The translations under genes were made by a program, and so were the position numbers. This document shows positions 1-58,133 of a stretch of 64,000 bases of DNA, piece after piece; position 1 is the first letter of the stretch; every line of letters starts with the position of its first letter. A model generated the notes under the pieces. That model was not told the origin of the DNA. It searched no databases and saw only the letters and a program-made list of their open reading frames with translations. Origin of the DNA: an uncultured Alphaproteobacteria bacterium. Lineage in GTDB: Bacteria > Pseudomonadota > Alphaproteobacteria > RF32 > CAG-239. The stretch is from assembly GCA_944393725.1 (NCBI GenBank), contig CALYBC010000020.1:6103-70102 (forward strand). The letters are read 5' to 3'.

Positions 1-1785
1 GTGAGCGCCGGTACCAACACCTGTGTTGCCTATACACCCAATCTTTTCGCCTTGTTTGACTTTACGTGAAGTGCCTGCCGCTCCGCCGCTACTCATTTTC
101 ATGTGTGCATAGTATGTTTTCCATGTATTGCCGCTTATGGAACCATGATCAATTATCGCATAATATCCATATCCCGTAACTGGTCCTGAGCCGTTTTTTC
201 TTTGAACCTTGTATGTTATAGTGCCCGGACCGGCTGCGACTACCGGATTGCATGGTGCCTTTGACCCTACGGCGGCATCTACACCGCTGTGTGTCTTTGA
301 GCATCCCTTACAAGGAGACGGGCGACAGCCAAACAGTGATGTTATCTGACCTCCAGCAAGACCTGGAATAAGCAAATTAGGTATTTGAGTTTGTGAAAAT
401 ACGGCTTCATTTTGCTTGGTAGCTGCAGCATCGTACTCCTTTTCCTCTTCGGTAAGGCCTGTATCTTCCTCGGTTTGTGAGGAATCCGGAAGCGGAGTTT
501 CTATTTGCGGAGTTTCTTTTTTTAATTCTTCTTCCAACATTGCAGTATCGTCATCGGTTATGGTATCCCAGCCTTCGGTATAGGATTTGATATCTTCGTC
601 CCAAAACTCCTGCCCCATAAGTGCGCCTACGCTCATAATCGGAGTAATGAAAAATTTACTGATTACACTAACTCCTTCGCTGATTACTATGTATGCAAGT
701 GCAACCTTAAATAACATCTTAAACAAGTCGTTTAGAATGTTACCGGTCTGAATTTCGGTGAATGATGAAACATTTTTTAGCCCCCAAAATGCAGCCCATA
801 GCAAAAATCCTACCAAGAGTATGCCGATACCGGCTTTTTGTGTTACGATTAAGCCTTTATTTGCTGCGTGTAAAAAGGCCGAGGTCAGCCTTTCTACAAC
901 CAAGCATGACCAGCAACCGGCCTGATATCTGGCCCTTAGCTGTTCGGAGGTCGGACAGGCCTGCAAAACCTTGGTCTCAATCTTTTTTGCTAATTTTTCC
1001 AGCTTTTCTTGCTTTTTGGTTTCTTGCGTTAACTCATATACTTCCGCTAGGCGGTTTTCGGTAGCTCTAACCATATTATCAAGCTCTATCTTGATGCTTT
1101 GATATTCACTTTCGTTTATGTAGCCATCTTTTTTCAAATTTTCCAGATTATTTTGCGCCTTTTGCGCTTGTCTTCTAAGATTGCGCCTGAACAATGTTTT
1201 ATTCATCGCTTTATCGTACCCCTCTTGGGTCGTATAAAGAGAAAGTTTGTCTAATGCCTCTTGCAGATATGTTGTATTGGGCAAATTGAAGAGGCCTTTT
1301 TCCGCAGCTGCCTCGTTTTTTGCGGCTTTCTCTAAAATCTTTTGGGTATTATCAGATAGCTTAATTTGTTCTTTATCGGCATAATAGTTACTTACTATTC
1401 TTTCTTTTTCTTCTGTACTATATTCTGCTTTGCTTGATTTTTTTAGTGCTTGCGTTTCTTCTTCTCCTGATAAGATTTTGCCGTCTTTATCAGTTGAGAT
1501 GCTAACTACATATTCTCCATTTTCCAGTGGCCTGTCTTTACCTACGCATTGGTATGTGGGCTCTTTCTCTACACACATGCCGCTCTCACTATCATGCCTT
1601 AGACAATCTGGTGAATCTTTGTGAATACATTGACTGGTATCAAGATTACAACTTGTATGACCACATAATATTGTTTCTGCCTTGGCTGCAGGAGAAAAAC
1701 CGTAAATGGCTACAAAAAACAGCACAAACATCATTATTTTGATGATGTGTCTGAATTTGATGATGTCGGCTCTGTTTTTTGTCAT
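1..1785 (-). CDS. Partial CDS (C-terminus lies off the left edge): Cys-rich N-domain, coiled coil and a VirB6-paralog-type CxxC/TM module, fused to an M23 (LytM) metallopeptidase domain
   Basis: Absent from the ORF track because there is no stop inside the window. The reverse complement of 1-1785 is one open frame (checked block by block for 1-960), starting at ATG 1785 with GGAGAA 6 nt upstream: MTKNRADIIKFRHIIKIMMFVLFFVAIYGFSPAAKAETILCGHTSCNLDTSQC... The middle part, AGCWSCLVVERLTSAF plus helices GIGILLVGFLLWAAFWGL and LFKVALAYIVISEGV, matches the CxxC-TM module of the neighbouring VirB6-like ORFs. The last ~110 codons give M23 motifs HSGVDAA, AAGPGTITY, GYGYYAIIDHG, TYYAHM and GEKIGCIGNTGVGTGAH. 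Confidence 0.75.
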   Translation of the reverse strand, partial: MTKNRADIIKFRHIIKIMMFVLFFVAIYGFSPAAKAETILCGHTSCNLDTSQCIHKDSPDCLRHDSESGMCVEKEPTYQCVGKDRPLENGEYVVSISTDKDGKILSGEEETQALKKSSKAEYSTEEKERIVSNYYADKEQIKLSDNTQKILEKAAKNEAAAEKGLFNLPNTTYLQEALDKLSLYTTQEGYDKAMNKTLFRRNLRRQAQKAQNNLENLKKDGYINESEYQSIKIELDNMVRATENRLAEVYELTQETKKQEKLEKLAKKIETKVLQACPTSEQLRARYQAGCWSCLVVERLTSAFLHAANKGLIVTQKAGIGILLVGFLLWAAFWGLKNVSSFTEIQTGNILNDLFKMLFKVALAYIVISEGVSVISKFFITPIMSVGALMGQEFWDEDIKSYTEGWDTITDDDTAMLEEELKKETPQIETPLPDSSQTEEDTGLTEEEKEYDAAATKQNEAVFSQTQIPNLLIPGLAGGQITSLFGCRPSPCKGCSKTHSGVDAAVGSKAPCNPVVAAGPGTITYKVQRKNGSGPVTGYGYYAIIDHGSISGNTWKTYYAHMKMSSGGAAGTSRKVKQGEKIGCIGNTGVGTGAH

Positions 1786-1806
1786 TGTTTTCTCCAATTA
1801 TATATA

Positions 1807-3111
1807 TTATTTGCGTCCCGCTATGCGAGCCATCTTGGCTTTGGCGGCAGAAGAGAGTTCATATGCTCTACCGGCCCAACGTATTAGCTTCCATGATGAC
1901 TGCGGTGCCAGTGATAAGCCGAAGGTTAATAAATTGCTTACACCTTTTAATATAGCGCCACCGATTGCCTGAGCTGCAGCCTTGAGGTTCTTTTGGAAGT
2001 TTGCACTCAAACCTACTCCGAGCAATGCCGAGGTTAACTGCTGAGAAACACCCATAGAACCATATATCAAGAAACCAATCAACAGCAGACATAAAAATCC
2101 GATGCTTATATCTTGCATATTGGCTTGAGCGTCTTCGGGATTAAATATACTGGGGTTGTTTTGTATTAAAGACACCATCGCCGTGAGCACCAATGCAATG
2201 ATTACGGAAAAACACATCATAAAGGCGGCAGAAGCCAAAATATGAACAAAACCTTTCTTGGTCCACTCCCTTGTGGGACCAAATGCGTAGCAAACTACAT
2301 AAAACGGTAGTAAAATTATGATTATTCCCATTTGGAATATGGTATCAACCAAGTAAAACGAGAATCCAATCTTAACAACCCAAAAAAACAGGTACAACAA
2401 TATTCCCATAATCTTACTGGTAATGTTTAACCCACCTTGGTTCATTACCTCTATGGCGATATCGCCACCAATGGTCAGATATCGGGAGGCCATCATTATC
2501 ATACAAAACATAGTATCTCTTATTGCCGTCGGAAATTCTCCGTTTTTAGATAAGAGGTCACCACCTATTGAGCAAGACATATCTACATCCGCTACATCTA
2601 TCGGAGTGCCAAAAACCTCAAAACCCTGATCAACGGCAGTGGTTAATGAAGTACTTAAAATATCGGTACCCAATTTTAGAAACGCCAGATAAACAGGAAA
2701 AACCAATGTATTGATTACATAAAGTATGCCCGTATTTGAGGAGGCCAATATTCCGCATATTCCGCAAACAAAAGCTTTGCGTATAATTTCGTTCCAGACC
2801 TCTCCGACATTGCTCTCGGTTACCGAACTTACATATTTTAGCAGTCGCAAAGCTAACCAAACCGAAAATGCTACCGCGATAACCGGCATGGCCGCAGATG
2901 TGAAGTTGCCGTACATGACTCCAACTTGTTTACTTACGGCATCAAATATGGTGGTTAGAATAACGCAACTTAAACAGTCTGCATCACTGGTATCAACTTC
3001 ACCGCTGGTAAGTTGGTCGGGTTCATCTGAGCAAGCGCTGATAAATAACACCGCAACCAAGATTATGGCCAGTTTGCTAAATTTGTGGAGTATGTTGCGC
3101 CATTTAGTCAT
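1807..3111 (-). CDS. TrbL/VirB6-like polytopic membrane protein with a lipoprotein-type signal
   Basis: 434 aa with a lipobox-like LFISAC. The motif CLSCVILTTIF is followed by at least 6 hydrophobic helices. LVDTIFQMGIIIILLPFYVVCYAFGPTREWTKKGF is colinear with LLDAVVQLGIVGALLPFLVASWPFKITSKYTASGF (3122..5452) and FMDALLQLSVIGAMMPLMIAGWPFRATSQYASTGF (47478..49520). An RBS lies upstream and the gap to the next gene is 21 nt. Confidence 0.65.
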   Translation of the reverse strand: MTKWRNILHKFSKLAIILVAVLFISACSDEPDQLTSGEVDTSDADCLSCVILTTIFDAVSKQVGVMYGNFTSAAMPVIAVAFSVWLALRLLKYVSSVTESNVGEVWNEIIRKAFVCGICGILASSNTGILYVINTLVFPVYLAFLKLGTDILSTSLTTAVDQGFEVFGTPIDVADVDMSCSIGGDLLSKNGEFPTAIRDTMFCMIMMASRYLTIGGDIAIEVMNQGGLNITSKIMGILLYLFFWVVKIGFSFYLVDTIFQMGIIIILLPFYVVCYAFGPTREWTKKGFVHILASAAFMMCFSVIIALVLTAMVSLIQNNPSIFNPEDAQANMQDISIGFLCLLLIGFLIYGSMGVSQQLTSALLGVGLSANFQKNLKAAAQAIGGAILKGVSNLLTFGLSLAPQSSWKLIRWAGRAYELSSAAKAKMARIAGRK

Positions 3112-3121
3112 AGTTATCTCC

Positions 3122-5452
3122 TTACTCCAGATTATCTAATTTGTTGCGGCTAGGTCTGTGACCTTGGTGCGAAGTATTATCAACATTTGCCGTTTTTGTG
3201 TTTTTATTGTTGTTGGCCGAGGTTGAAGCCGGACGCGTAGCCGCGTTGGTGTCAGGCGAAGATTGGTTGCCTCCGGTAACATTTGCCGCGTTTTGAGTTT
3301 GACCATTTGCTGAGCCCGGCCTGTTTTCGGAATTGGTCTGTGCGGTAGGTTTGCTGCCTACATTTGCGGTTGTTCCGCCTTGAGCGCCGGTACCGCTGGA
3401 ATTAGGACGACCACCGGATTCAGAGTTGGCCGAAACCGGTCTGCTGTTACCTACATTCGCAGTCTTTTGAGGCTGCCCACCGCCATTATTACTCTGCGTT
3501 CCTTGGCTACTGCCGCTTGCACCTCCTCCGAGTCTGTTTTTGATAAAACGGCGAACCGGACGCAGGGTGGCAAGTCCGACTCCTTTATCTACGGCTTTAT
3601 TTGCAACTTTTTTGGCTTTGTCTTCCATATATTCGCCTATAGCCTCTCTGGTCGGTGCCGAAACTTTGCTGGCAAATCCTTTAACGGCACTAGCCCCCAT
3701 AGTGGCAAAACTCGGAGCAACCGGCTTAATACCTCCGCTGGAAAATTTGTTCGTCAAATCTGATACTTTAGACATCAGCATAAAGCCTAAAATACAGGCA
3801 AATATAAACATCAAAAATTCTACGCTCAAAACATTGACTAATTTTTTGAGTTTGGCCGTATCCACATTGTCCAGAGCTTCTATCAGACCACTGATTCCTG
3901 AAGAATCTTTCAGGCTTAGCGAACTATCAATTAGCGAAATGGCAACCGTAACTATCATGCCTATCATCATGAAGTTAAATACGCTGTTTAAAAACATCTT
4001 GAAACCGGAGGCGGTGTATTTAGAGGTAATCTTAAACGGCCAGCTGGCAACTAAAAACGGCAGTAATGCTCCCACTATGCCAAGCTGCACAACCGCATCA
4101 AGCAGATAAAATACAAACGCCAGCGACATTAAAAATCCAAAAACCCAGAAAAATATGGCATAAATTCGGCATTCCAACCCTAAACCAAATTCAAAACTTG
4201 GGCGTCCTATTATATATCTGCCGCCAAGACACCACAGTGAACTACCGATACTTTGCAACATGGCGTATTTTAGATTAACACTATAGGCCAAATTTTCTAA
4301 AAGAGCGTAGGTGCTAAAACTGTAGAATATATTTTCAAAATTGCGAGAATAATCCGACGGCATAGTTTTATCTACAGCCGCAAAAGCTTCCGGCGTCAGA
4401 GCATCAACGCCAAAACGATTGGCAATACTCTGTATTTCTCCTCCGGATAGCATACTGGTGCCAAAACTTAAACCGGCATTCAATATTGGCAGGATGATAA
4501 ACGAGAATATATCACCATAATAAACCAGTAAAAAGTAAGCTATCATAAATTTGTAACTTTGCTGCAACATCTCGGTTATATATTTGGCGGCATCTTGTTT
4601 GGTTAAAGAGCTGACAAAAACAAGAGTCTTGAGAGCAAGCCATATTACCAAACCAACTGCTATAACCGTGGCAAAGCTTGACGCAAATTTTGTTGCGGAA
4701 AGCTGTGTTATGTCATCGGCAGCCGCATATATTACACCCATTAATGAGCAGAATCGGCACTTACTGTTGTTATAAAGCATAACCGGAATAACATCACAGC
4801 CGCGACCTTTGGCATCTCCGGCAATAACCCGCACTTCATTTCCGATTGCTTTAACACAATATTGGGAAATATTTCCCGAGGCATTTTTAGCTGCGTAGCA
4901 TTCTTTTATTTTGTATTCCTTCTCTTTGGTCGTTCTAACTTCTTTTGTTGAAAGATTGGTTAGCTCAATTTTTTTACTTAAATTTTTATGAGTGCTTAAA
5001 TCCACTTCTGTCCAACCTAGGAGCTCTTTTAGCTCTTTGATTCTCTTACTATCTGATCTACTTACGCACTCGTATCTGTATACGATTTTATTCTTAGAAG
5101 TATTGCTAAATAGTATTCTAAAACCATTAAATGTACTACCAATATCATATTCTTTAACCATACAAACAGATGTCTCAATATTACATAGTTCTTTACCGCA
5201 CTCAATGATATTGGTGGGACGCTCATTCTCGCTTTCGCCAAAAATCTCTGAAAACCGACTAAACTCTGAGCTGTTTTTTTTCATAAAATCCCAAGCATTT
5301 TCCGGAGATACGGCGTCAACTCCGGTGGTGGAAGCTTTGTCTGCGGCCGAACAAACACTGCCAAACAGCGGCTGAAGCACTATCGCTGCCGCCAGAATTA
5401 ATATATGCAGTAATTTATTCCTTTTTTTCACCATCTTCTTCATCCCTTGCAA
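3122..5452 (-). CDS. Large VirB6/TrbL-like membrane protein with a Cys-rich periplasmic N-domain and a G/S/N/T/Q-rich C-terminal tail
   Basis: 776 aa with a signal peptide (LHILILAAAIVLQPLFGSVCSA). N-domain IIECGKELCNIETSVC, then CRFCSLMGVIYAAADD, then multiple TM helices, including the conserved LPFLVASWPF block shared with the other VirB6-like ORFs. The C-terminal ~170 aa are low complexity (ANVG-type repeats). The start is uncertain: the track uses TTG 5452, and ATG codons occur at 5443 and 5434. Confidence 0.7.
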   Translation of the reverse strand: MQGMKKMVKKRNKLLHILILAAAIVLQPLFGSVCSAADKASTTGVDAVSPENAWDFMKKNSSEFSRFSEIFGESENERPTNIIECGKELCNIETSVCMVKEYDIGSTFNGFRILFSNTSKNKIVYRYECVSRSDSKRIKELKELLGWTEVDLSTHKNLSKKIELTNLSTKEVRTTKEKEYKIKECYAAKNASGNISQYCVKAIGNEVRVIAGDAKGRGCDVIPVMLYNNSKCRFCSLMGVIYAAADDITQLSATKFASSFATVIAVGLVIWLALKTLVFVSSLTKQDAAKYITEMLQQSYKFMIAYFLLVYYGDIFSFIILPILNAGLSFGTSMLSGGEIQSIANRFGVDALTPEAFAAVDKTMPSDYSRNFENIFYSFSTYALLENLAYSVNLKYAMLQSIGSSLWCLGGRYIIGRPSFEFGLGLECRIYAIFFWVFGFLMSLAFVFYLLDAVVQLGIVGALLPFLVASWPFKITSKYTASGFKMFLNSVFNFMMIGMIVTVAISLIDSSLSLKDSSGISGLIEALDNVDTAKLKKLVNVLSVEFLMFIFACILGFMLMSKVSDLTNKFSSGGIKPVAPSFATMGASAVKGFASKVSAPTREAIGEYMEDKAKKVANKAVDKGVGLATLRPVRRFIKNRLGGGASGSSQGTQSNNGGGQPQKTANVGNSRPVSANSESGGRPNSSGTGAQGGTTANVGSKPTAQTNSENRPGSANGQTQNAANVTGGNQSSPDTNAATRPASTSANNNKNTKTANVDNTSHQGHRPSRNKLDNLE

Positions 5453-5615
5453 AAGGGTTACCCAGAATAAAAAACGCCGCCAGAATCGAGGAAACGAATA
5501 ATACTATAGAAAGCCATTTAAACATATTGCTTGATATAAATTCAAACAAATCAATGCTGTATGCCAGAAATAACAACAAAATCATCAGTATTGTCCAGCC
5601 CCAGGCTTTAAGCAT
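5415..5615 (-). CDS. Small two-helix membrane protein, first ORF of the VirB6-like operon
   Basis: 66 aa with two hydrophobic helices and an acidic tail (DEEDGEKKE). AAGGAG-type RBS (AAGGAGACCAAAAATG). It overlaps the start of the next ORF. No family recognised. Confidence 0.4.
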   Translation of the reverse strand: MLKAWGWTILMILLLFLAYSIDLFEFISSNMFKWLSIVLFVSSILAAFFILGNPFARDEEDGEKKE

Positions 5616-5647
5616 TTTTGGTCTCCTTATTCCACTCTCTTATCATC

Positions 5648-5695
5648 ATAACATACAAATTACTTATAAAGTGTTACAGTTTTTTGATTTTTTAT
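5648..5695. promoter_or_regulatory. Conserved 48-bp cis element, copy A, immediately upstream of the VirB6-like operon
   Basis: ATAACATACAAATTACTTATAAAGTGTTACAGTTTTTTGATTTTTTAT matches 49564..49612 at 45 of 48 positions plus one extra T. Both copies lie 32-43 nt upstream of the first start codon of a minus-strand VirB6-like gene. Confidence 0.5.
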
Positions 5696-5715: not shown

Positions 5716-5746
5716 CTTTTTGTACACAAATTGTCCCTTTTTGTAC
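5716..5746. promoter_or_regulatory. Direct repeat CTTTTTGTAC x2 at 21-bp spacing (candidate operator) in the divergent regulator/VirB6 intergenic region
   Basis: CTTTTTGTAC occurs at 5716-5725 and 5737-5746. The core TGTACA is palindromic. TTTTTGTACA recurs at 12461-12470 and 42423-42432, in T4SS intergenic gaps. Confidence 0.3.
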
Positions 5747-5820
5747 TATTTTCTTGATTAATATCTGACTTGTATTAATATTGGGGTAAATATTTCAACT
5801 TTGTAATGAGGTAAAATATC

Positions 5821-6792
5821 ATGGAAGAAATTATTTTTCCCAACCAAATCAGAATGTATCGCCGTTTGAGAGGCCGCTCTATGCAAGAGCTTGCCGATCA
5901 TCTTAATGTTTCATTGTCGGCCATATCCAAAATCGAAAAAGGATATCGCAGAGTCGATCAAGAGCAGTTGGTAAAAGTATCGGAATTTCTTGATTGCCCA
6001 TTACAGGATTTGTTCGTTAATGAGCAAAATTCTCAACAAGAAATCGTGTTGGCATGGAAAAGAGAACAGGAAAGACGCAACAAAATCAATGAAAAAAGCG
6101 GTCTTAAAACCTTGGGTGCCGGTTTGCGTCAAATCAGAAATGAAAAGAATCTGACTTTGATTGAAGTTGCAGAAAATGCAGATATGACTTTGTCGGTTTA
6201 TCACCGTATTGAGATGGGGCAACGAGAAGTTTCGGAAAAAGAAATGAAGAACATTGCCAAAGCATTAAAAGTCTCTGTTGATGAACTAAAAGCACAAATT
6301 AAAGATTTGGATGAAAAGGGATTCTTGGAAGAAATTATCCAGAGGAATGATGCCAAGTATAAATTGTTGTCAACACCGCGAGGCGCTATTGCTTCTTTTG
6401 TTTCTGCGACCCAAGAACTGCCTAAAATTCAGGTTTTTGGCACTGCCGGCAAAAATGGCGATCTGTTAATCAATTTTAATGAAGAAGTTAAGAGAATTGC
6501 TTCTCCATTAAATCCGCAAAGTGCTAAAGACTGCTACGCTCTCAATCTTTGCACCAGAAGATTGGGCAATCTCTTGCCTGCTCGCTCAATATTGTTCGTC
6601 AATTCGCAAGAACCGGTTAGTGTTGGCGATATTGCAGTTTATTATACAAGCGAAAATGAGGCCAAAGTAGTATCAATCAGAGAAGATGAGGACGGAAATA
6701 TGTTTGGCATGCAATGGAATCCTGATGAGAAAATAACTCTGTCCAATGACGATATGACAAAACTTCATAAGGTTATTTTTATTAGCTTGTAG
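5821..6792 (+). CDS. Tandem XRE-family HTH transcriptional regulator with a LexA/CI (S24)-like C-terminal domain
   Basis: 323 aa with two HTH units (IRMYRRLRGRSMQELADHLNVSLSAISKIEKG; LRQIRNEKNLTLIEVAENADMTLSVYHRIEMG). The C-terminal ~120 aa have an S24-like layout (IQVFGTAG, VSVGDIAVYY, KVVSI) but no obvious catalytic Ser. Divergent from the VirB6-like operon and followed by a terminator. Confidence 0.8.
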   Translation: MEEIIFPNQIRMYRRLRGRSMQELADHLNVSLSAISKIEKGYRRVDQEQLVKVSEFLDCPLQDLFVNEQNSQQEIVLAWKREQERRNKINEKSGLKTLGAGLRQIRNEKNLTLIEVAENADMTLSVYHRIEMGQREVSEKEMKNIAKALKVSVDELKAQIKDLDEKGFLEEIIQRNDAKYKLLSTPRGAIASFVSATQELPKIQVFGTAGKNGDLLINFNEEVKRIASPLNPQSAKDCYALNLCTRRLGNLLPARSILFVNSQEPVSVGDIAVYYTSENEAKVVSIREDEDGNMFGMQWNPDEKITLSNDDMTKLHKVIFISL

Positions 6793-6805: not shown

Positions 6806-6839
6806 AAAAAAAAGCCGCTCAAATGAGCGGTTTTTTTTT
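6806..6839. terminator. Bidirectional rho-independent terminator shared by the regulator (+) and the end of the T4SS gene train (-)
   Basis: A8 run, then stem CCGCTC (6815-6820), loop AAAT, stem GAGCGG (6825-6830), then a T9 run. It sits between convergent stops at 6792 and 6838. Confidence 0.75.
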
Positions 6840-7611
6840 ACAACGGAGGAATGTTTAACTGGACTATGCTTCCGGGGCTTATTTTACTGTTGGCATAGCG
6901 CATATTGCCGGTTTCTATCATAAAACGCTGTCTGCCGGTCATCTGTGCCGCCAGGTCATAAAAATCTTTGGCTCGCATGTCTTGTCGTTGTGGGTTCATT
7001 ATGTAGAGAACACATCCTTGAGCACGTTCGGCGATGCCGCATCTGGCTCGTCCTCTCGGAACTTCGGCGTTTACCACAACCCCCTGCAAACCGTTGCGAA
7101 CTATTTTTGATTCGGCAAAAACAAGTTTTCCGATAATTACCCCCATAAACAATGTGGCAACCAGTATTAAAGAAAGAGTTTTGACATTTAACCACCCGGG
7201 AAGTGATATATTAGACGCACTGCGACCGTAAACTTCGCTTTCGTATGTGTCCTCATCTATGTATTGCGGAGTTTCATACATATTGCCGGAATCGACTTCT
7301 CTTGAGGGGACATTGCCGCCATCAAGGTATTCATTTAATTCTGCCGAAGTTTCAATGTTTTCGCTATCATTATAATTATGCGGAGGAACCGTCGAAGTTT
7401 GCGGCATCGGTCTGGCAGGACTTGCAGACGGCGATGCCTGCCTGAATGGATTTGCTTGCGGCTGAGGAGCATGAGGCGGCTGTGCCGACGGTACAGGAGG
7501 GACTTGCGGCGTGACTGGTTGTGCCGATGTTTGCGGCAGAGTCCGGTTTATCGGTCTTTTTATTTTTTTTAGACGGGGTTGCCCAATATTATTAAGATTA
7601 TCCATTGCCAT
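6838..7611 (-). CDS. Pro/Gln-rich bitopic membrane protein, function unknown (last gene of the T4SS train)
   Basis: 257 aa. N-terminus PVTPQVPPVPSAQPPHAPQPQANP, single TM LSLILVATLFMGVIIGKLVF, and a ~90-aa C-terminal domain. The gap to the upstream gene is 9 nt. Confidence 0.55.
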   Translation of the reverse strand: MAMDNLNNIGQPRLKKIKRPINRTLPQTSAQPVTPQVPPVPSAQPPHAPQPQANPFRQASPSASPARPMPQTSTVPPHNYNDSENIETSAELNEYLDGGNVPSREVDSGNMYETPQYIDEDTYESEVYGRSASNISLPGWLNVKTLSLILVATLFMGVIIGKLVFAESKIVRNGLQGVVVNAEVPRGRARCGIAERAQGCVLYIMNPQRQDMRAKDFYDLAAQMTGRQRFMIETGNMRYANSKISPGSIVQLNIPPL

Positions 7612-7620: not shown

Positions 7621-8889
7621 CTATAAATTGTTTTTTAAGGTCTGGTCCGTCTTCATGGTTTTGATTACTCGCGGAACTATCATTATTATGGTTTCCGACT
7701 GTGGCGATTTTAGATCAAAAACCGTATTGGGAAGACCTATAATCAAGAAATTCTCGCCCAGTTTGCTCCGAATTGAATAATTGGCAATCTCACCGCGGGA
7801 AACTTCAATGGTAATATCGGAATAAATCTTGCTGTTTTCTTCAAACGAAGCTTTTGCCAGTAAGGTCATATTGGCAACAATTGAAGACTGATTCATGCAT
7901 TTTCCGATATCAAAACGAGAAAACCATAAATTGGGGACGACAAACTTGCCTTCACCCACATTTTCTACCCGAGCCTGTCTCATTAAGAATGAGGTCAATG
8001 AAGCAACATTGATATCATTCGAGGTCGTAAGCAGACGTCCCAACACACCGTTGCGGCTACTTTTGATTGAACCAAATTCAAATGTCTTGATTATTTGCTG
8101 CCACTCGATACCGTTGGGAGAATAAGGATACAGGTTAAATACTTTTACATCATAAGCCAGCAATACCGGATTTTCTTCAAAATAGTTTATCAGATTTAGG
8201 ATTTGGTTCTTTAATTCGAAATCAGCGTCAAAGGTTATGCTGTAGTCATCAAAATTGGTGGTAAAGTCTGTAATACCGGCTCCTCTTAAGACATCAAGGA
8301 TAGCCAAAAGTATAGTTCTGGATTGCGGAATGTATAAGCTGTAGTTAGCCTTACGAGATATCCGCATGGTTTGATTGACCGAGTTATATGTATAGTATAT
8401 TTCGGCTGCATCGCATAACATATTGATGACATCGGTTAAGCTTCCGCGTAAATTTTCGGCTGATATACTGGCATAGGGGGCATCTTTGGCTATCAATTTT
8501 ATACCGGCTTCTTTGGTAAGTTCAAGTAATGCTTTTTCTGCCGGCATAGTGTCAAATGAAAAGCCATTAACCTCAAACTTCGGCAGAGCATCATTTTCGC
8601 CATTTCTTACCAACTTAAACGCTTGGGAATTATATGGAATTGTAGATATCATTTCCTGAGTGTTCCAGTTGACAAAACACCGATATGGCGTTTCCAAATC
8701 CAACCTGTTGGCACCTTTGGGCGTGCGAATTACCGGATATGGTGTTTTTTTGACCTCCTGTGCATTATATGCAGGAACCTGTGCTTCGGCTTTTGGTTGC
8801 CGGGGATAATATTTGGACAAATCGCAACCGGAAAGAAAAAATGTTGCTATAGTTAAAATGTAAAAAATGCGTCTCATTGTCATAATCAA
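7621..8889 (-). CDS. Lipoprotein with secretin-like N0/N1 modules and a short, divergent secretin-like C-terminal domain
   Basis: 422 aa with lipobox FFLSGC. RGSLTDVINMLCDAAEIYYTYNSVNQTMRISRKANYSLYIP and SITFDADFELKNQILNLINYFEENPVLLAYDVKVFNL are colinear with GPLSGFLDEVSSRFGVWWKYDNKDIYFYRFITKTFVMYSLP and TITLTATPNDIKLVAKYVNEQNARLARQVAISVKIMQV of the secretin at 52141..53745. The C-terminus (ENFLIIGLP ... SETIIMIVPRVIK) resembles the end of a secretin domain. Confidence 0.5.
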   Translation of the reverse strand: MIMTMRRIFYILTIATFFLSGCDLSKYYPRQPKAEAQVPAYNAQEVKKTPYPVIRTPKGANRLDLETPYRCFVNWNTQEMISTIPYNSQAFKLVRNGENDALPKFEVNGFSFDTMPAEKALLELTKEAGIKLIAKDAPYASISAENLRGSLTDVINMLCDAAEIYYTYNSVNQTMRISRKANYSLYIPQSRTILLAILDVLRGAGITDFTTNFDDYSITFDADFELKNQILNLINYFEENPVLLAYDVKVFNLYPYSPNGIEWQQIIKTFEFGSIKSSRNGVLGRLLTTSNDINVASLTSFLMRQARVENVGEGKFVVPNLWFSRFDIGKCMNQSSIVANMTLLAKASFEENSKIYSDITIEVSRGEIANYSIRSKLGENFLIIGLPNTVFDLKSPQSETIIMIVPRVIKTMKTDQTLKNNL

Positions 8890-8897: not shown

Positions 8898-9644
8898 TTA
8901 TTGCTGTTGCGGGCGAGGCTGACCGCCCTGGGGTTGCGGGCGAGGCTGACCGCCTTGGGTTTGCGGGCGAGGCTGACCGCCTTGGGATTGCGGGCGAGGC
9001 TGACCGCCTTGGGATTGCGGACGAGGCTGACCGCCTTGGGATTGCGGACGGGGCTGACCGCCTTGGGGTTGCGGACGAGGCTGACCGCCCTGGGGTTGCG
9101 GGCGAGGCTGACCGCCCTGGGGTTGCGGACGAGGCTGTGGAGCCGTAACATCGTCCTCATATTGCGTCTGCTCAATATTGTTCTGCTTCATCAACTTATT
9201 AATGACCTCATCCATCGACATACCGGCACCTGCCGTCGGGTCATCGGACTTATCTATTTCACCCAGAGCCTCCTTCATCTTGTTTAGCTCATTACCGTCT
9301 TGCTTTATCATGTCAGGAGAGGCATTTTGCTCAAGCTCAGATTTAAATTCTTTAAGGTTCTTTTTTAATGCATTTACACCACCGGCTATCTTCTTTTCAA
9401 CATAGCCAAATAAATCGGGGTGAGACAATATGTACTCTCCGGTTTCGCTTATTTCTTCCAAAACATCAAGTATGTAGGGATAGTACTTATATTCTTCCAT
9501 GGCAATATTGCCTTGACGAACACAACGAGCTGCAATACGAGAAATTGTCATATCGTAATACTCTTTGAGCAGAATATAATTGTCAACATACCAGGTGTCG
9601 CCTCCGACACCCTGCCCAGAGCTAAACTCTTTGTTTGTTTCCAT
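8898..9644 (-). CDS. Soluble protein with a C-terminal PRPQxQGGQ tandem-repeat tail, function unknown
   Basis: 248 aa with no TM or signal peptide. A non-repetitive N-domain of ~165 aa is followed by 8 full and 1 partial 9-aa repeats. The stop lies 8 nt before the next start. Confidence 0.65.
   Translation of the reverse strand: METNKEFSSGQGVGGDTWYVDNYILLKEYYDMTISRIAARCVRQGNIAMEEYKYYPYILDVLEEISETGEYILSHPDLFGYVEKKIAGGVNALKKNLKEFKSELEQNASPDMIKQDGNELNKMKEALGEIDKSDDPTAGAGMSMDEVINKLMKQNNIEQTQYEDDVTAPQPRPQPQGGQPRPQPQGGQPRPQPQGGQPRPQSQGGQPRPQSQGGQPRPQSQGGQPRPQTQGGQPRPQPQGGQPRPQQQ
8901..9134. repeat. 27-bp in-frame tandem repeat, about 8.7 copies
   Basis: Unit GGCTGACCGCC(C/T)TGGG(G/A/T)TTGCGG(G/A)CGA, head to tail. 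It encodes PRPQ(P/S/T)QGGQ on the minus strand. Confidence 0.9.
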
Positions 9645-9718: not shown

Positions 9719-12385
9719 TTAATCTTTTAGAACACTATTTTGGTATGGGTCGAAATCTTCATCCTCGGATTGCAGTAATTTTAACTTCTGTGGCGGGCTT
9801 GCGGGTAAAGTTGTATTTACATCGCTTCCTGATACTTCTTCCGGCATATAGTCATCGGAATAGTTATCATCATCTTCAACATAAACCCACTCCCAGTCTT
9901 GATCGGAGTTGTCATTACCGGCATCACTGTCTGACGGATAGGCAGCATTGTCTGGCGCATAATCATACTTCTCATCCTGAGGAACAATTTCGTCATTTTG
10001 AGAAAAGTCTTCGTTACTTGAGGCATCAAATCCCCAATCGTTGGCCTCTTCACCTTCATAATCATCAGATATTCTGATATTTGAAGTTGCCAACTCGGAA
10101 TTGCCGTCATCTTGTGTGCTAAATCCCCAATCAAAACTGCTTTCATCTGATGATTGCTCTTGGTTATTTTCATCACCAGAGATATAATATTCACTGTTGG
10201 TTTCATCCGAGGTAACTGCACCGGCGTCAGGATGAGGAACCTCTTCATCCGGTACAGTCTGCGGGTCTGTGTCGGCCGGCTCTTCCGGTTGATATGTGTA
10301 ATCATATGAAGGCGGCTCGTTTTCGGCTAGAGCTACTGTTTCTGTCGTGCCCCCGAAAGCGTCTGAATTATCAAGGTTGTTGTCCACAGAATTTTCATAT
10401 TCGTTGGGTTGAAGCTCATCATAATGATCCTGTTCGGTTGAGGCGGAAACTTCCGGTAAATCTTCGTAATCAAACTCTCCATTCGGTAACTCCAACGCCG
10501 CATCAAGAGATTGTGTTGCCTCATTATTTGCAACCTCAAAACCGGTATTGATTTCTGCGGTCGTATTTTTTTTCTTTTTCTTTTTCTTCTTTTTCTTCGT
10601 AACCGCCCCATCAGATACATTATCTGCATAGTTACCATCTTCAAAGGTATTGTCATATGTATCTTTGGAGACTGTTATATCTTGCGGCTCGTATATATTT
10701 TTTTCTACCTCGGAACTGGCGAATCTGTCACTTTGGGCAATATTGGCAGTCGTTTCTTGTTTAATCTGAGTTACCAACATCGGAGTTAGGATTTCTTTAA
10801 TTCCACGAGTAAAAGCTTCTATTAATTCTTCATTTTTGCGATTGCTTAATTTTCCAAAAATCTCTCCCTGAGCTTCAATCGCTCGGGTGATGGCTTTTTC
10901 AAGATTTTTCTCGTTTGATGCTTGCAATGATGAAATCTTGTTAATTAACTTTTCTATAGCCTCTTGGTCGCCCGAAAATGCTACAGGCGTAATGTGCTCA
11001 CCTTGGCTTGATGGCTGCGTATGATTCTCTGAAACCTTGGATATAACCGCTTTAATTAATTTTTCTTGCGAATCGTTTATCATTTTAAGCAGTTTTGCAC
11101 TATCGGCTTCTTTTGACGGTGATTGAGATGGAGAATCTGACCTGTTGTTCAGATTTTTTAACAGCTCTTCTTGTGTGGCTTTGAAGGCTTCAATGAGATT
11201 TATGTTGTCGTTTGCTTTGTTTAGCGACATTTCCTCAACCTTATCAAGGCGCAAATTTATCTGTTTCTGCCCTTCTATCACTGCCTCTATGAGTTTTTGC
11301 GTGGTAGAATCATCATACGCGGGGAGCGGAGCGGCAACCGTTCCGTCAGCAAGTTTGATTCCGCTTAGTGACTGGCCTAAACTTTTCTGACTTTGAATAA
11401 TCGCGTCGCAAAGCTCCTTTATTTCCGATGAGGTGGAACCATTATCACGACTGGATTTCAGACCCTCGGTAATCGCACTGCAAAGCTCTTTTATTTCTTT
11501 GTTTTGGTCTTCCCTTATACTCAGGTAATTATCCGATATGGTTTGCAGAAGTTCTTTTATATCTATTCCGCTTATACTTTCTCCGCCTGATGATGTAACT
11601 ACAGGTGTTTTATCAGCAATTACCTTGCATAATTCCTTAAATTCCTGCTGATGCTCGTTGTAACCTTCTTTGATGTTTTTTGCAATGTATAATTGTGTTT
11701 TGCTTATGTCCTGAACAAGCTTATCTAAACTCTCTTTTTGGAGTTGGCTTTGGTACTGCATGAGCGGGTGCAGGCTTTTGGCAAAGTCAGAGGCAAAATT
11801 CTCGCCTAAACTTATATTAACTTTTCCCGCTCCGATTGATGATGCTCCACCGGCAGCATTGTTTCCAAGTTCTTTTATTATCTTCTCCAGACTTTCTCTC
11901 TGAGTTGCAGCTTGCTGCTGCAGAAGCCCGGCGATGATTCTGGTAAATTCCGTAGAAAAATCTTTATCAAAACTTATTTTACCACTTACTGCGGTAACCG
12001 GCTGTGCTGATGATGAAGGAGGAACAGCTCCGAAGGCCGTTGCTTGAGTTGTTGTGTCAAAAACAGGCGATGGAGATGACGGTGTGTCTACGGCTTCTTC
12101 GCTTCCTTTATTGCCGCTCAGTTCGTCTATATAGTCTTGTAACATGGCTCCGCCTGGCAAAGTTGAGAATATACTCTTTACATCTGGCGACAGCTCAAGT
12201 AGCATCTTATTGAAGGCTTCGCGGCGTTCTCCGCTTAGTATGTGCATTTGGCGATAAATGTTTAGAAACCTTTGTGCAACGACAACAGGATCCTCGTCGC
12301 CTTTACGCAACGCCTTTCTTCTTGCCTCCGTCGTTCTGTTGGTTTCTGCTACCATTCTTGCACAATTACCTTTCGCAATATACAC
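9719..12385 (-). CDS. 888-aa cytoplasmic-type hyper-acidic protein, function unknown (occupies the position after virB11 where virD4 often sits)
   Basis: No TM or signal peptide. Basic N-terminus, internal repeats (FKELCKVIADK, IKELCSAITEG, IKELCDAIIQS), a run of 10-11 Lys, then ~300 aa of D/E/N/S/Y-rich sequence with FDWGF, NDWGFD and DWEWVY motifs. No Walker motifs, so it is not VirD4. Confidence 0.7.
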   Translation of the reverse strand: MYIAKGNCARMVAETNRTTEARRKALRKGDEDPVVVAQRFLNIYRQMHILSGERREAFNKMLLELSPDVKSIFSTLPGGAMLQDYIDELSGNKGSEEAVDTPSSPSPVFDTTTQATAFGAVPPSSSAQPVTAVSGKISFDKDFSTEFTRIIAGLLQQQAATQRESLEKIIKELGNNAAGGASSIGAGKVNISLGENFASDFAKSLHPLMQYQSQLQKESLDKLVQDISKTQLYIAKNIKEGYNEHQQEFKELCKVIADKTPVVTSSGGESISGIDIKELLQTISDNYLSIREDQNKEIKELCSAITEGLKSSRDNGSTSSEIKELCDAIIQSQKSLGQSLSGIKLADGTVAAPLPAYDDSTTQKLIEAVIEGQKQINLRLDKVEEMSLNKANDNINLIEAFKATQEELLKNLNNRSDSPSQSPSKEADSAKLLKMINDSQEKLIKAVISKVSENHTQPSSQGEHITPVAFSGDQEAIEKLINKISSLQASNEKNLEKAITRAIEAQGEIFGKLSNRKNEELIEAFTRGIKEILTPMLVTQIKQETTANIAQSDRFASSEVEKNIYEPQDITVSKDTYDNTFEDGNYADNVSDGAVTKKKKKKKKKKNTTAEINTGFEVANNEATQSLDAALELPNGEFDYEDLPEVSASTEQDHYDELQPNEYENSVDNNLDNSDAFGGTTETVALAENEPPSYDYTYQPEEPADTDPQTVPDEEVPHPDAGAVTSDETNSEYYISGDENNQEQSSDESSFDWGFSTQDDGNSELATSNIRISDDYEGEEANDWGFDASSNEDFSQNDEIVPQDEKYDYAPDNAAYPSDSDAGNDNSDQDWEWVYVEDDDNYSDDYMPEEVSGSDVNTTLPASPPQKLKLLQSEDEDFDPYQNSVLKD

Positions 12386-13451: not shown

Positions 13452-16400
13452 CTAAAACAGTGCCGGAACACTACCGCTTTCTCCCGTATCGGCCGTGCTG
13501 CCTGCCGGCGTTTGCGGTGTGGTCGCTATATTCCCCGACGAACTCGGCGGCGGAGGCGGAACCAGCGTCTTATTTTTCTTGGGGGCATCATCTATCAACA
13601 GGGGTTGTGTATCAGCGGCAGCCGCTTCGACATTGGCCTCGTCCGGATCATACACAACCTGTGTACTTGAAGCTTTGGCAACATCCTCGCGTTGTTTCTG
13701 ACGGCTCTCTTGGTCAGTCTTAACATCGTCGATTAAGATTTCTGGCTTTTGATACTTTTGTGATTCTTCTTCGTCGCGCTCTACGCTTCTTAGCCATAAA
13801 TCAGTGTTCGGATAAACAATTATACGCGTTCCGGCCGGAATATAGGTCATTGCTTTTACATCTGTCTTATCGGCCAATATGTCATCAAACAATTCTTCCA
13901 TATCGTCCAAGAAATTCTGACGAGCGTCGTTGGCTGCCTGTTGTTTTGAGGTTTCAATTTCCCCTGCGGCGTCATCAGCAGAGGCAATAAAATATGATGC
14001 TCCCGAAGATAAAACCGTGGTTACTACCGGTAAGGTATATTTCTTGAAGAGTTGCTGGTCAACATAACCTAGAGCTCCTGCTCTACCTTGAGCATCCGCA
14101 GTTTGGCCGCTAAACACAAAGATGGAGCCGTCGGGTCTGATTAATCTTTCCCAACTGATTTGAACTCGGGCAGATTCCGAGGTTGCCTCAGCCGCCGCAG
14201 TTATGCTACCGAAACTTCCTATCATACGCGAACCGGCCGGAATTATTATGTTGCGGCCTTCTTCCGCATATACATTCCTCTCGACATAGGCAGTGATAGG
14301 AGCTGGATTGTTGGTATCTATCGCACGCGCGATTACGGCAGGAATCGGCTTATCGGAGAATATCATTTCGCTCATATCAACTCTCCATGAAGAAATCGAC
14401 TTCGGTATACCTTGCTCGGACCAATCTTTTTGGTAGCCGTCAAAAGCCTCTTTGCGAACACTTGAACCGATGTGCCCAACACTGATGTTTTGTCTTCTCT
14501 CTTGCATTGCCGCTTCAAGTGCTGCTCTGCGGGTCGGGTCGTATCTTTCGCCGGGGCCATAACCTCCACCGGGGCCTAAGTTGGCAGCACTACCTTCACC
14601 GACGCCGTAAGCTCCTCCGGGACCAAAGCTGCCGGCAGGAACAAATACTTTTCCGTCATCTTCTTTATCGCCAAAGTCTTCGGTACCTATCAGATTGCCC
14701 TCACTGTCTATTATTAAGCCGTCAGGTGTACGATATCCAATTATATTCCCTTTATCGTCAATAACCGTATCATTTTCCAAAATCTCACCAAGATACTCGC
14801 CGTCAGGGGTTAGAGCGATACCTAAAGATTTGTAATATTTGGGGTCTTCCAGCATTTTTAGTGCCGGTGATACATCTTCTTCTTGGGGCTGTTTTAGAGA
14901 ATCCAATATCGAAGTCTTATCAAACCAACTTCGTGTTTCGTCTTTTTCTGCGTCGGCCTTAGCTTTGGCTGCCGCTTCTGCTTCGGCCTTAGCTCTGGCC
15001 TCAGCCTCTGCCTTAGCTTTAGCCGCCGCCTCTGCTTCATCCACCGGAACCAATAGTTTATCTTTGTTAAAGTCATAATACTGTAATGGTCTTGCTTTAA
15101 CTATAAACTCGCCATTGTCTTTTACAATACTGCCACCGGAATTTATACTGCCTATAACATTGCCCAGATTGTCATAAACCTTACCATCTAAAGATAATTT
15201 TCCAAGAACCAAATTGGTATTGTCTCTGATATTGTAATCACGATTACCGCGACCAACTACTTGCTCCCCTTTTATAACAAAACCTAAATCATATTTGCCT
15301 AAGCTTTGGTTGTTGAAACCAAAAGCTTCGCCATTGCGGTTGACCAAACCTATAACTTGTCCGGAATTATCATAAATGTATAGATCATAGAGAGCATAAC
15401 CGATATTTTTTTCATCAGAAACAACATAGCCGTCGTAATTCACATCACCCAAAATCTCGCCTGTTGCCGATATTACCTTCCCTTGTGATGACACTCTGCC
15501 GATATATTTGTTAGACATATCAAAAGCAACCTTATACTTAAACAAATTTCCCAGAGGCAGACCGGCATTGGAATTAACATTATCATTGGGTTGCAGATAT
15601 CCTATGAGTTCATCATCATCATCGACTATTAAACCGTTTACCGTTGTGTATCCGATTATATTGCCGGCAAAGTCAATAACCGAATTAAACTCAACAGCCT
15701 TTCCGATTAGGGCTTTATTTTCGTTATATAGCTGTTTATTGTAGTCCAAACAGCCAACCTGACTACCAGTTTCATTATAAACTTTGCCGTCATTTGAAAC
15801 AAACCCTATGGTGCGACCATTAAAATCAACAACAGGCGATTGAGCTACTTTATAGCCGACCACAGCACCGCTGTCGCTGATAACAAAATCATTAGCCAAC
15901 AATTTGCCGACATATACATCTCTGTAGTTGTAAACATTTCCGTTAAAGGAAACAACGCCTATGGTTTCGCATTTGTCATTAACGGCTACACCTTGAGAAG
16001 ATAAATATCCGTTGACAATTCCGTTGTTGTCAGTACTGAGCATTCCTTCAACGACTTTACCTATTTTTGAGCCTGAGGAGTTTTTTACATTGCCGGCTAT
16101 GTCGGTGTACCCGATAAAATTACCGTTAAAGTCTAAAACCGTACCGCCATTATATGCAAAACCAATCTTGGGCATATAATTAAAATTACCTGATTGGGAT
16201 TTAGCTACGCTTGTATCCGGTAAGATTTTTCCAATATCGCTGAAAGAACGATCCAAAATGTTATTGTGATAGCTTATATTACCAAGAGTATTTCCATCAT
16301 TGTCAACAGCAACATAGTCCTTTATCTCTGAGGCAATTAGTTGGTTTTGCGGATTTAGCACATAGCCCGAGCCGACAATTTTACCGAGTTCAGCACCTTT

Positions 16401-21100: not shown

Positions 21101-21107
21101 ATGTACC

Positions 21108-42378: not shown

Positions 42379-42481
42379 CTTATCCTCCTATTTGCCTTGG
42401 TTCGCTTTATTGACTGAGTTTGTTTTTGTACATCATTACTTGTATAAAAATAAATCCAGCCTGCTTTTGTTTAGGCCTTGA

Positions 42482-42511: not shown

Positions 42512-42525
42512 CCTGACCAAACTCA

Positions 42526-53745: not shown

Positions 53746-53767
53746 CTTCTTTGCAGGAGATAAAAAA

Positions 53768-56417: not shown

Positions 56418-56444
56418 CTTTAATTTAATTGGTTAAGGTGGAAA

Positions 56445-58118: not shown

Positions 58119-58133
58119 TTTGAGGGCGATAAA

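Follow-up and report, generated by a model that had tools for sequence, protein, structure and literature searches.

Introduction

In Rickettsia a type IV secretion system (T4SS) designated rvh includes five VirB6 genes, with products of 670–1150 amino acids (aa); virB6a to virB6d are arrayed, and in Orientia virB6e is not arrayed with a–d (PMC2653234). Rickettsiales rvh systems also contain two VirB8, have no VirB5 analogue and have VirB6 as their most variable and fastest-evolving component (PMC2653234, PMC11077975). Features of this kind have been described as a Rickettsiales signature (PMC11077975), and it has been an open question since 2009 why four or five VirB6 paralogs are retained in Rickettsiales (PMC2653234). 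Here, a set of large VirB6 paralogs is described from a 64,000-nucleotide (nt) stretch of contig CALYBC010000020.1 of an uncultured Alphaproteobacteria bacterium; this whole stretch is referred to as the window. The paralogs comprise an array of four genes, which begins within positions 1–5615 and runs past the window edge, and an unlinked fifth gene, virB6-5. With moderate confidence, the array and virB6-5 are interpreted as specialised extended-VirB6 subunits of the adjacent T4SS, with a cell-wall hydrolase built in and with common regulation.

Extended VirB6 proteins are defined as a VirB6 core with one or more large hydrophilic domains, and the contribution of the extra domains to T4SS structure and function was described in a 2025 review as not yet known (PMC12857230). 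In the R388 system only the two N-proximal helices of VirB6 lie in the membrane and the remainder forms a periplasmic pentamer; the domains given for VirB1-like hydrolases of Gram-positive systems include LytM/M23 (PMC12857230).

Identification and modelling of the paralogs

Four open reading frames (ORFs) of the window were compared and labelled P1 (1–1785, virB6-3), P2 (1807–3111, virB6-2), P3 (3122–5452, virB6-1) and P4 (47478–49520, virB6-5). All are on the minus strand. By BLASTP, P3 and P4 shared 32% identity over 461 aa (E = 6e-72), P2 matched P4 at E = 4e-16, and P1 matched P4 at E = 2e-9 over the CxxC motif and transmembrane helices (TM) 1 and 2, with a second match across the N-terminal Cys knot (E = 7e-4); identities between paralogs were 21–32%. 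The Pfam gathering cut-off for TrbL/VirB6 (PF04610, 25.9 bits) was exceeded by P2 (31.5 bits), P4 (28.8 bits) and the fourth array gene, virB6-4 (38.7 bits, E = 1e-9). P3 and P1 gave no direct Pfam TrbL/VirB6 match and were tied to the other paralogs by BLASTP and by profile A2, which matched exactly the four genes P1–P4 in the window and no further VirB6. None of the NCBIfam models matched any VirB6 paralog.

An AlphaFold model of P3 was built on 122 sequences, with a mean pLDDT of 74.8 and a core mostly above 90. Foldseek searches with this model placed chains of TrwI/VirB6 from the R388 T4SS at the top of the PDB matches, with E = 1e-4, a probability of 1.0 and a target-based TM-score of 0.51–0.59; these were led by 8rt9_F, 8rtd_L and 7o3v_F-J, so that all five VirB6 chains F–J of the last entry were included. 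The model of P1 gave a weaker match to the VirB6 fold (probability 0.35–0.51).

At least five hydrophobic helices, the second of them followed by a large loop, were indicated by hydropathy and the AlphaFold models, and an aromatic (W/Y/F)-(P/A)-F block was conserved in the region of the third and fourth helices. The block reads LPFLVASWPF in P3, MPLMIAGWPF in P4, AFPLVMGLWPF in full-length P1 and LPFYVVCYAF in P2. Its Trp, a candidate counterpart of the Trp reported as essential in A. tumefaciens VirB6, was conserved in paralog classes 1, 3 and 5 and replaced by Tyr or Phe in classes 2 and 4. Around this core, P1, P3 and P4 carry large hydrophilic additions (N-domains of 180–275 aa, tails of 90–210 aa and, in P1, a central insert of approximately 370 aa), and P2 is minimal, with only about 40 aa before helix 1 and a 77-aa tail. 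The paralogs thus belong to the extended-VirB6 proteins.

Full-length units were read from contigs, one of the same strain or of one almost identical to it (L081) and one of a relative (L001, VirB6-1 77% identical). In virB6-3, a signal peptide (AKA/E) is followed by a six-Cys beta knot, a coiled coil of approximately 170 aa, a Cys triad (C277, C291 and C294), anchor helices 1 and 2, an acidic linker, an M23 peptidase domain, a second linker and the rest of the VirB6 core, including the aromatic block (full product P0156). In virB6-1, the order is signal peptide, beta-rich N-domain with six Cys, Cys tetrad (C219, C232, C235 and C408 in the numbering of the 776-aa ORF), VirB6 core and a disordered, basic tail of about 200 aa rich in Gly, Asn and Ser. 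The unlinked virB6-5 has a signal peptide (ASA/Q), a Cys knot, a tetrad (C184, C197, C200 and C362), its aromatic block and a Gly/Ala-rich basic tail. It lies 42 kb off, between a gene for a XerD-like recombinase and a type IVb pilus locus. That locus (49686–61511, plus strand) is divergent from virB6-5 and encodes TcpQ-like, secretin, PilO-like, T2SSE ATPase, T2SSF platform and bundlin-like pilin proteins; the singleton VirB6 genes of other species have no type IVb pilus neighbours.

An initial annotation, made from the DNA letters, had named these four ORFs as VirB6/TrbL-like relatives. The ORFs exist as it described and their homology is borne out by BLASTP, the minus strand having been missed; the profile searches agree with the family it named, through P2, P4 and the fourth array gene above threshold and P3 by its fold match to TrwI. 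P1 had been credited with the shared CxxC-TM module alone, which was an effect of truncation at the window edge, P0156 possessing both the aromatic block and the VirB6 core. The LP(F/L)h(V/I)AxWPF block that it had assigned to all three VirB6-like members was found in P3 and P4, and the counterpart in P2 departs from it; the TTG start that it had used for P3 was replaced by the called ATG (table 1). A reading of P1 as a stand-alone M23 peptidase with a borrowed CxxC-TM module was ruled out by the full-length protein, in which a complete VirB6 core follows the M23 insert.

Scanning a single genome for each species yielded 202 loci, 80 of which were kept as related loci; all results on related loci below refer to these. 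All 80 came from metagenome-assembled genomes of uncultured gut Alphaproteobacteria or 'proteobacteria', including CAG:495, 'Azospirillum sp. 51_20' and Candidatus Scatocola, the last being classified under Rhodospirillales. The related organisms are abundant uncultured gut Alphaproteobacteria of chickens, ruminants and humans, and the sequence of the window was traced to chicken gut metagenomes (read-archive runs). No description of a T4SS in RF32 or in these gut organisms was found in the literature searched. Homolog clusters of P3 (n = 122) were mostly unnamed metagenomic proteins, and an exhaustive family-profile search of 1.84 billion representatives returned only 1558 proteins with E ≤ 1e-3, of which 747 reached E ≤ 1e-30. 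Judged from sequence, the VirB6 family found here forms a compact clade far from canonical VirB6.

Adjacent secretion genes

Upstream of the array, a P-type T4SS train occupies 6838–42867 on the minus strand. Its order is VirB2-like pilin, TrbC-domain protein, 1853-aa protein, VirB3-like ORF, VirB4, six unannotated genes, two VirB8 (22689–23423 and 23734–24489), VirB9 with a SPOR domain, a beta-flower/RHS protein, VirB10, VirB11 and four unannotated genes. VirB4 and VirB9 are each present once in the 64 kb. No profile match to VirB1/SLT, VirB5, VirB6 or VirD4 was obtained in the train, including a re-scan of its ten unannotated ORFs at E ≤ 1, and no VirD4-type coupling protein was detected within the window; as to VirB5, a divergent member may have escaped the profiles. 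The paralogs are the probable VirB6 subunits of this adjacent T4SS, which has no detectable VirB6 of its own.

Cysteines and membrane topology

The conserved unit is a Cys tetrad, made up of C-x12-14-C-x2-C before anchor helix 1 and a single Cys located in the helix ahead of the third hydrophobic helix. It was kept in 64/64 orthologs of classes 1 and 3, in 63–64/64 of class 4 and in 13/13 of class 5, and all four Cys were present in 118 of 122 aligned family members. In further representatives, in which the loop Cys was not scored, the pre-helix triad C-x(9-18)-CxxC was found in 120/122. Six more Cys in the N-domain were conserved in about three quarters of P3/P4-type proteins. A search of the 61 window ORFs of at least 120 aa with the pattern CxxC-(20-45)-hhhW[LA]A[LFA] matched only P1, P3 and P4, with no match in 300 shuffles; P2 (CLSC, 32 aa, FSVWLAL) fits by eye and misses the pattern owing to its Ser. 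The knot CG-x(2-6)-CN-x2-T-x2-C was found in P1, P3 and P4 only.

The Cys of P2 include the CLSC at residues 46–49, a CxxCG that is invariant and opens helix 2 (C116, C119), and the two loop Cys C180 and C203. In class 2 the first Cys is the lipobox Cys (64/64). A CxxC universal to the five classes was ruled out by this class, in which the second Cys of the pair was present in 17/64 orthologs and most read CWQ. The CxxCG of class 2 (residues 116–119 of P2) was itself conserved in 64/64 and lies on the cytoplasmic or membrane side, apart from the periplasmic Cys.

In the P3 model the CxxC is at the N-terminal end of helix 235–281, and C408 is approximately 20 residues before the next hydrophobic helix, which puts both at a similar height above the membrane. 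The proteins carry Sec signal peptides or a lipoprotein signal, Cys-rich N-domains and K/R-rich tails, which together indicate a periplasmic location for the N-domain, the tetrad and the central loop. Given the arrangement reported for R388 VirB6, the side of the C-terminal tails is uncertain here; the periplasmic loop and N-domain hold in either topology.

Most of what the initial annotation had said of these motifs stands: CWSC, CLSC, CRFC and CFFC are all present, and the N-terminal Cys knot occurs in three of the four proteins. The CxxC and the N-domain extensions, for which it had named no side, are predicted to face the periplasm. Its CxxC-TM signature was recovered by pattern in three proteins and only by eye in P2, and the spacing from the CxxC to the hydrophobic-Trp motif is 32 aa in all four (counted by hand in P2) rather than the 20 aa or so that it had given. 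Among the relatives surveyed the motif was family-wide within the VirB6 clade and no generic feature of an unrelated membrane protein family.

Most likely the tetrad forms a pair of disulfides by which the N-domain and the central loop are stapled to the anchor helix, this pairing being the simplest reading. It is unlikely that the four Cys instead hold a metal in a zinc-type Cys4 site or include a CxxC with redox activity. Such roles would suit a CxxC with two more invariant Cys, which is the classic pattern of a metal site, and a CxxC at a helix N-terminus, as in thiol oxidoreductases; the periplasm of gut organisms, such as those of the chicken, may also be less oxidising. However, the four Cys are predicted to be periplasmic and to lie beside six more N-domain Cys, an even number typical of disulfide-bonded exported domains, no thioredoxin fold was found, and the P2 class keeps one Cys of the pair.

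Operon, promoter element and regulator

Positions 1–5615 cover three and a half genes from the start of an operon of five, in the order 66-aa protein, VirB6-1 (770 aa), VirB6-2 (434 aa), VirB6-3 (997 aa, with M23) and VirB6-4 (877 aa), as read from L081 and L001; virB6-3 is cut by the window edge and virB6-4 lies just outside it. Intergenic gaps within the array are 10–21 nt, and the end of the 66-aa gene overlaps the start of virB6-1. The 66-aa gene was recovered in most loci, mostly directly upstream of the array. Its assignment as VirB3 was rejected, a VirB3-like ORF of 96 aa being present directly before VirB4 (35629–35919).

Complete four-gene arrays were present in 63 of the related loci, always with the classes in the same order and with sizes of about 790, 440, 935 and 925 aa, respectively. 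P4-class singletons were found in 12, and an array and a singleton were both seen in seven genomes. The array starts approximately 1.2 kb past the end of the T4SS train in the window and in 17 loci, and in most others it is linked to the regulator described below and to a gene for an 888-aa protein. Median identity across loci was 33.6% for VirB6-1 versus 94% for VirB11 (in the 17 loci where VirB11 was found).

Upstream of the 66-aa gene and of virB6-5 the same element of approximately 49 nt was found, here termed the VirB6 box, with the consensus AAAAAATCAAAAAAYTGTAACACTTTWTAAGTAATTTnTnTGnTATRAT, which is near-invariant across species. The window contains exactly two copies (none expected by chance), and the box is absent from the promoter region of the train and from elsewhere in the window. 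With up to three mismatches, its 22-nt core was found upstream of the VirB6 genes in 13/13 single-gene loci (12 true singletons and the truncated array L002) and in 31/67 arrays, and nowhere else in the related loci; in the most distant clade no match to the core was obtained at this tolerance. The box is predicted to be a promoter element that joins the unlinked paralog to the array.

Between the train and the array, and divergent to the array in the window, lies the gene for a regulator with two Xre-type helix-turn-helix (HTH) domains. It was always linked to the array, in three arrangements, namely divergent upstream, co-directional downstream and as the first gene of an inverted block. Across 64 species-level loci the median identity of the regulator was 76.5% (range 71–96%), with VirB6-1 there at a median of 33.6% (range 23–77%). 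The direct repeats GTACAAAAA, contained in TAGTACAAAAAGGGACAATTTGTGTACAAAA between the regulator gene and the box, occur as a single copy of TAGTACAAAAAGGGACAATTTGTGTACAAAA in the window and are conserved in arrangement A loci (regulator divergent); they may be an operator for the tandem-HTH protein. The regulator itself probably controls the VirB6 genes at the box. As separate observations, the linkage of regulator and array persists through at least two inversions, and the C-terminal part of the regulator, of approximately 130 aa, has no family match.

The proposal of a separate operon under a different upstream element, made in the initial annotation, is supported by these features: a terminator-like hairpin (6830..6815), the divergent regulator and the box. 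Its description of the genes as uncoupled from the train holds for transcription and fails for position, at a distance of approximately 1.2 kb; in its list of operon contents the fourth array gene (877 aa), the 66-aa first gene and the M23 domain in the loop of P1 were missing.

The shared promoter element and the count of four arrayed genes and one unlinked gene bear on how the paralogs might be assembled. In one view, tentative and unlikely, they form a heteropentameric stalk base with one copy of each paralog, the N-domains replace the VirB5 tip and VirB1, and the 4+1 set is one structural unit. The count of five recurs in the seven genomes in which both units were captured, one promoter element is common to all five genes, no VirB5 was detected in the train, the R388 VirB6 is a pentamer (PMC12857230) whose chains 7o3v_F-J all match the P3 model, and Rickettsia too keeps five copies (PMC2653234). 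This view is, however, drawn by analogy with R388; Anaplasmataceae manage with four VirB6 (PMC2653234), the sizes of the paralogs differ more than twofold (434–997 aa), and the count of five may be coincidence. Were it true, the 4+1 layout common to this locus and rvh would reflect either common ancestry, with rvh-type systems older and wider than Rickettsiales, or convergence.

It is improbable that the paralogs are instead alternatives to one another, each forming a separate homo-oligomer, so as to give machines with different substrates or partners or regulators of secretion. Their divergence (21–32% identity) and the fast evolution of VirB6-1 relative to VirB11 would suit this, and duplicated rvh components have been hypothesised to autoregulate secretion (PMC11077975), but the shared promoter element and the tight operon argue for simultaneous expression, and the order and class identity of the four array genes are fixed in 63 arrays.

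Hydrolase domains

The loop of virB6-3 contains a LytM-type endopeptidase domain that exceeded the Pfam Peptidase_M23 gathering cut-off (PF01551, 28.7 bits) both in the part within the window (41.5 bits, E = 1.6e-10) and in the full ortholog (57.4 bits, E = 1.8e-15). Foldseek matched this part to the LytM domain of DipM, LytM, EnpA and lysostaphin with probability 1.0. The zinc and catalytic residues are all present, in the motifs HSGVD (H499, D503), YAHM (H561) and HLH (H595, H597); the window includes H499, D503 and H561, and the HLH motif begins at its last codon (H595). These five residues were conserved in all aligned copies, that is, in 26 of the loop type and in 21–22 of 22 of the N-domain type, one copy being gapped at two positions. 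Thus virB6-3 reads as a complete VirB6 protein with an M23 domain inserted in its large central loop and the predicted active site intact, which suggests that the loop has peptidoglycan endopeptidase activity.

Two placements of M23 occur, each in its own set of species: the third paralog's loop and the fourth's N-domain (residues ~90–240). Identity between loop-type and N-domain-type M23 was approximately 27%, and within types approximately 38–40%, from which the two placements are either old or independent. In relatives, 16 arrays also carry a VgrG3-C-like glycosidase (PF21277, E = 1e-24); in 15 of these it was in the fourth paralog's N-domain, and in L019 it was at the N-terminus of the third paralog. 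M23 was present as well in 12 of these 16 arrays, with the two domains in tandem in the same N-domain in 11. In total, 47/63 arrays carried M23, 16/63 the VgrG3-C-like domain and 51/63 at least one of them. In the third paralog the loop acts as a slot for domain swapping.

An unrelated sequence of ~200–240 aa, lacking any Pfam match, takes the place of the M23 insert in this loop in three loci (L003, 12838–15609; L008, 13755–16772; L011, 14222–17275). The loop of L004 and L012 carries no insert.

VgrG3-C and some M23 domains serve as antibacterial effectors. That the M23 and VgrG3-C-like domains here are such toxins, cleaved off a VirB6 carrier and delivered to gut competitors by a bacteria-killing T4SS, is highly improbable. 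In its favour, PF21277 is named after the C-terminus of the type VI secretion system (T6SS) spike protein VgrG3, RHS-repeat and beta-flower proteins are encoded in the train, the rvh of free-living basal Rickettsiales has been proposed to kill (PMC11077975), and the killing T4SS of Xanthomonadales has peptidoglycan hydrolases among its effectors (PMC6536674). Against it, the M23 domain in this genome has a set of hydrophobic helices of a polytopic protein on either side, a position unsuitable for export, no immunity gene is evident beside the M23-bearing gene, and neither an effector-like C-terminal signal domain nor, in the window, a VirD4 was detected.

Coordinates and neighbouring genes

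Table 1. Features of the paralog loci and their upstream regions, in window coordinates.
Feature	Position	Strand	Remarks
virB6-3 (P1), first 595 of 997 codons, cut by window edge	1..1785	-	full product P0156, 997 aa, 100% identical over 595 aa
M23 (LytM-type) endopeptidase domain in virB6-3	1..330	-	residues ~486–595 in window, to ~640 outside
CWSC of virB6-3 (C291, C294)	904..915	-	conserved in 64/64 orthologs, with C277 and loop C739
virB6-2 (P2), 434 aa, minimal paralog, lipoprotein signal (lipobox ISAC, C27)	1807..3111	-	Pfam TrbL E 1.9e-7
virB6-1 (P3), 770 aa from ATG 5434	3122..5434	-	called start; longest ORF begins at TTG 5452
CRFC of virB6-1 (C232, C235)	4748..4759	-	N-terminal end of long helix that becomes anchor helix 1; Cys in 120/122 aligned members
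First operon gene, 66-aa protein with two hydrophobic helices	5415..5615	-	ribosome-binding site AAGGAG; called gene in L081
VirB6 box AAAAAATCAAAAAACTGTAACACTTTATAAGTAATTTGTATGTTATGAT	5645..5693	-	extended -10 (TGT-TATGAT, 5645–5653); 29 nt upstream of ATG of 66-aa gene
TAGTACAAAAAGGGACAATTTGTGTACAAAA, two GTACAAAAA direct repeats 21 nt apart	5718..5748	-	between regulator gene and VirB6 box
Two-HTH regulator, 323 aa, two Xre-type HTH and C-terminal domain	5821..6792	+	Pfam HTH_3 x2, E 4.5e-29
Terminator-like hairpin CCGCTCATTTGAGCGG and T-run	6815..6830	-	just after last train gene (6838–7611)
virB6-5 (P4), 680 aa, unlinked paralog	47478..49520	-	Pfam TrbL E 1.2e-6
Second VirB6 box	49562..49610	-	ends TGT-TATAAT; 41 nt upstream of ATG of virB6-5

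At the head of the train three VirB2-like genes are apparent, all on the minus strand. The first (42526–42867) is a pilin-like ORF of 113 aa with a signal peptide and two hydrophobic helices, and is followed by a GC-rich hairpin (~42470–42515). The second (41689–42378) encodes 229 aa with a weak TrbC/VirB2 match (E = 1.4e-5) below the Pfam cut-off, and the third (36087–41648) is the coiled-coil, Cys-rich giant of 1853 aa, an internal segment of which (GFGLIGFAWMAIFNKLSWKWFANIAMGL...) is closely similar to the small pilin (GFGLVGIAFAAIFGKVNWKWFAALAVGL...). The components of the outer-membrane core are much enlarged (13452–22682, minus strand): VirB10 has 1448 aa, with approximately 1100 aa of beta-flower repeats ahead of the TrbI domain, a beta-flower/RHS-repeat protein of 1101 aa is encoded between VirB9 and VirB10, and VirB9 (CagX) has a C-terminal peptidoglycan-binding SPOR domain. 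Four genes without family match follow on the same strand, at 9719–12385 (888 aa), 8898–9644 (248 aa), 7621–8889 (422 aa, lipoprotein) and 6838–7611 (257 aa). In the fetched flanks and across most arrangements, the 888-aa gene stays together with the regulator and the array, at times in inverted form, and the 248-aa gene does so in a few loci.

In L040, L044, L045, L049, L053, L054 and about 30 others many independent assemblies end 1.4–2.2 kb upstream of the array. The sequence at these ends, within the first ~250 nt of the loci, is conserved between species, with TTGACA on the opposite strand, and the array there is not beside VirB10/B11. Such shared ends suggest a repeated unit, such as an rRNA operon, at which assemblies break. 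An Rfam scan of four of these loci found nothing.

Discussion

Homology, fold, conserved gene order, the Cys pattern, the intact M23 site and the shared promoter element are shown here, and the view that the paralogs are specialised subunits of the neighbouring machine builds on them. The five paralogs would supply VirB6, that is, the inner-membrane anchor and stalk base, to the chromosomal P-type T4SS beside them, and would co-assemble. Their N-terminal domains and cysteines would be exported to the periplasm, where the disulfides of the tetrad would staple the N-domain and the loop to the anchor helix, and the N-domain and central loop would act as cargo slots for extra domains. Hydrolase domains in these slots would bring peptidoglycan cutting to the assembly site, which elsewhere is the job of VirB1, and the five genes would be co-regulated through the ~49-nt element, probably by the linked two-HTH regulator.

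Several observations weigh against this interpretation. Twelve of the 63 arrays had no recognisable hydrolase domain, carrying at the same loop position an unrelated insert of ~200 aa or no insert, and no stand-alone M23 was found in the fetched flanks; in these the hydrolase must be either dispensable or provided by another source. Beyond the window, a transglycosylase of the VirB1 type could be encoded. In the fetched flanks, most arrangement B loci showed only the regulator and the 888-aa gene by the array (with the next gene too in three loci), and not VirB10/B11. A Cys4 metal site fits the same tetrad pattern, and class 2 keeps only the first Cys of the CxxC in most orthologs. RNA-seq runs were sought for a test of the operon, and the sequence was present in DNA metagenome runs only. 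The family is also remote from solved VirB6 proteins: a tblastn search of 72,556 plasmids with P2 gave no match and the family profile gave only noise against PDB sequences, so the link to solved VirB6 is one of fold alone.

If the interpretation as built-in subunits holds, a testable function is suggested for at least one kind of extended-VirB6 domain, namely M23 and the VgrG3-like glycosidase in defined slots. The known part is the extended VirB6 as such; no earlier description of an M23 domain or other peptidoglycan hydrolase inside VirB6 was found in the literature searched. The family offers further handles in the periplasmic Cys tetrad, the promoter element that ties in an unlinked paralog and a 4+1 set matching the VirB6 pentamer. 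The most far-reaching version, in which a lineage of gut commensal Alphaproteobacteria outside Rickettsiales has, as its T4SS stalk base, a heteropentamer of five co-regulated, disulfide-stapled extended VirB6 proteins carrying hydrolases and standing in for VirB1 and VirB5, is doubtful.

Comparison with known systems

The paralogs resemble VirB6 of A. tumefaciens and TrwI of R388 in their polytopic core of hydrophobic helices, the Pfam match of three of the five, the TrwI fold and the neighbouring VirB4, VirB8, VirB9, VirB10 and VirB11 genes. Unlike canonical VirB6, they are two to three times longer, carry a cleavable or lipoprotein signal peptide, a Cys-rich periplasmic N-domain, the Cys tetrad and long disordered basic tails, and occur as five paralogs with their own promoter element.

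The wall hydrolase dedicated to a T4SS is shared with VirB1 and with Gram-positive proteins of the PrgK/TraG type (SLT, CHAP, muramidase, LytM), and some of the relatives pair a peptidase with a glycosidase, akin to T4SS hydrolases. In contrast to those, the hydrolase here is not a separate protein but lies within a VirB6 loop or N-domain, in a Gram-negative VirB-type system. The enzyme domains are the same as in VgrG3-C of the T6SS and in effectors of killing T4SS (PF21277, in relatives, and M23), whereas here they are embedded in a membrane subunit, with neither an immunity gene nor an effector translocation domain seen.

With rvh, the parallel drawn in the initial annotation is apt, as Rickettsia virB6a–d are arrayed, Orientia virB6e is not, and two VirB8 are present (PMC2653234). 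Four arrayed large VirB6 and a fifth, divergent flanking domains, two VirB8 and fast-evolving VirB6 are common to both; rvh has no VirB5 analogue, and none was detected here in the train ORFs scanned. The hosts differ, being uncultured gut Alphaproteobacteria and not Rickettsiales; the array here lies past the end of the train with its own promoter, whereas the rvh array follows virB3-virB4; and only one VirB4 and one VirB9 are present in the 64-kb window, compared with duplication of both in rvh. Neither hydrolase domains nor a Cys tetrad were reported for RvhB6 in the literature searched. The system resembles rvh but is not filed as rvh, and the likeness may reflect kinship or convergence; rvh-like features also occur in abundant uncultured gut Alphaproteobacteria outside Rickettsiales.

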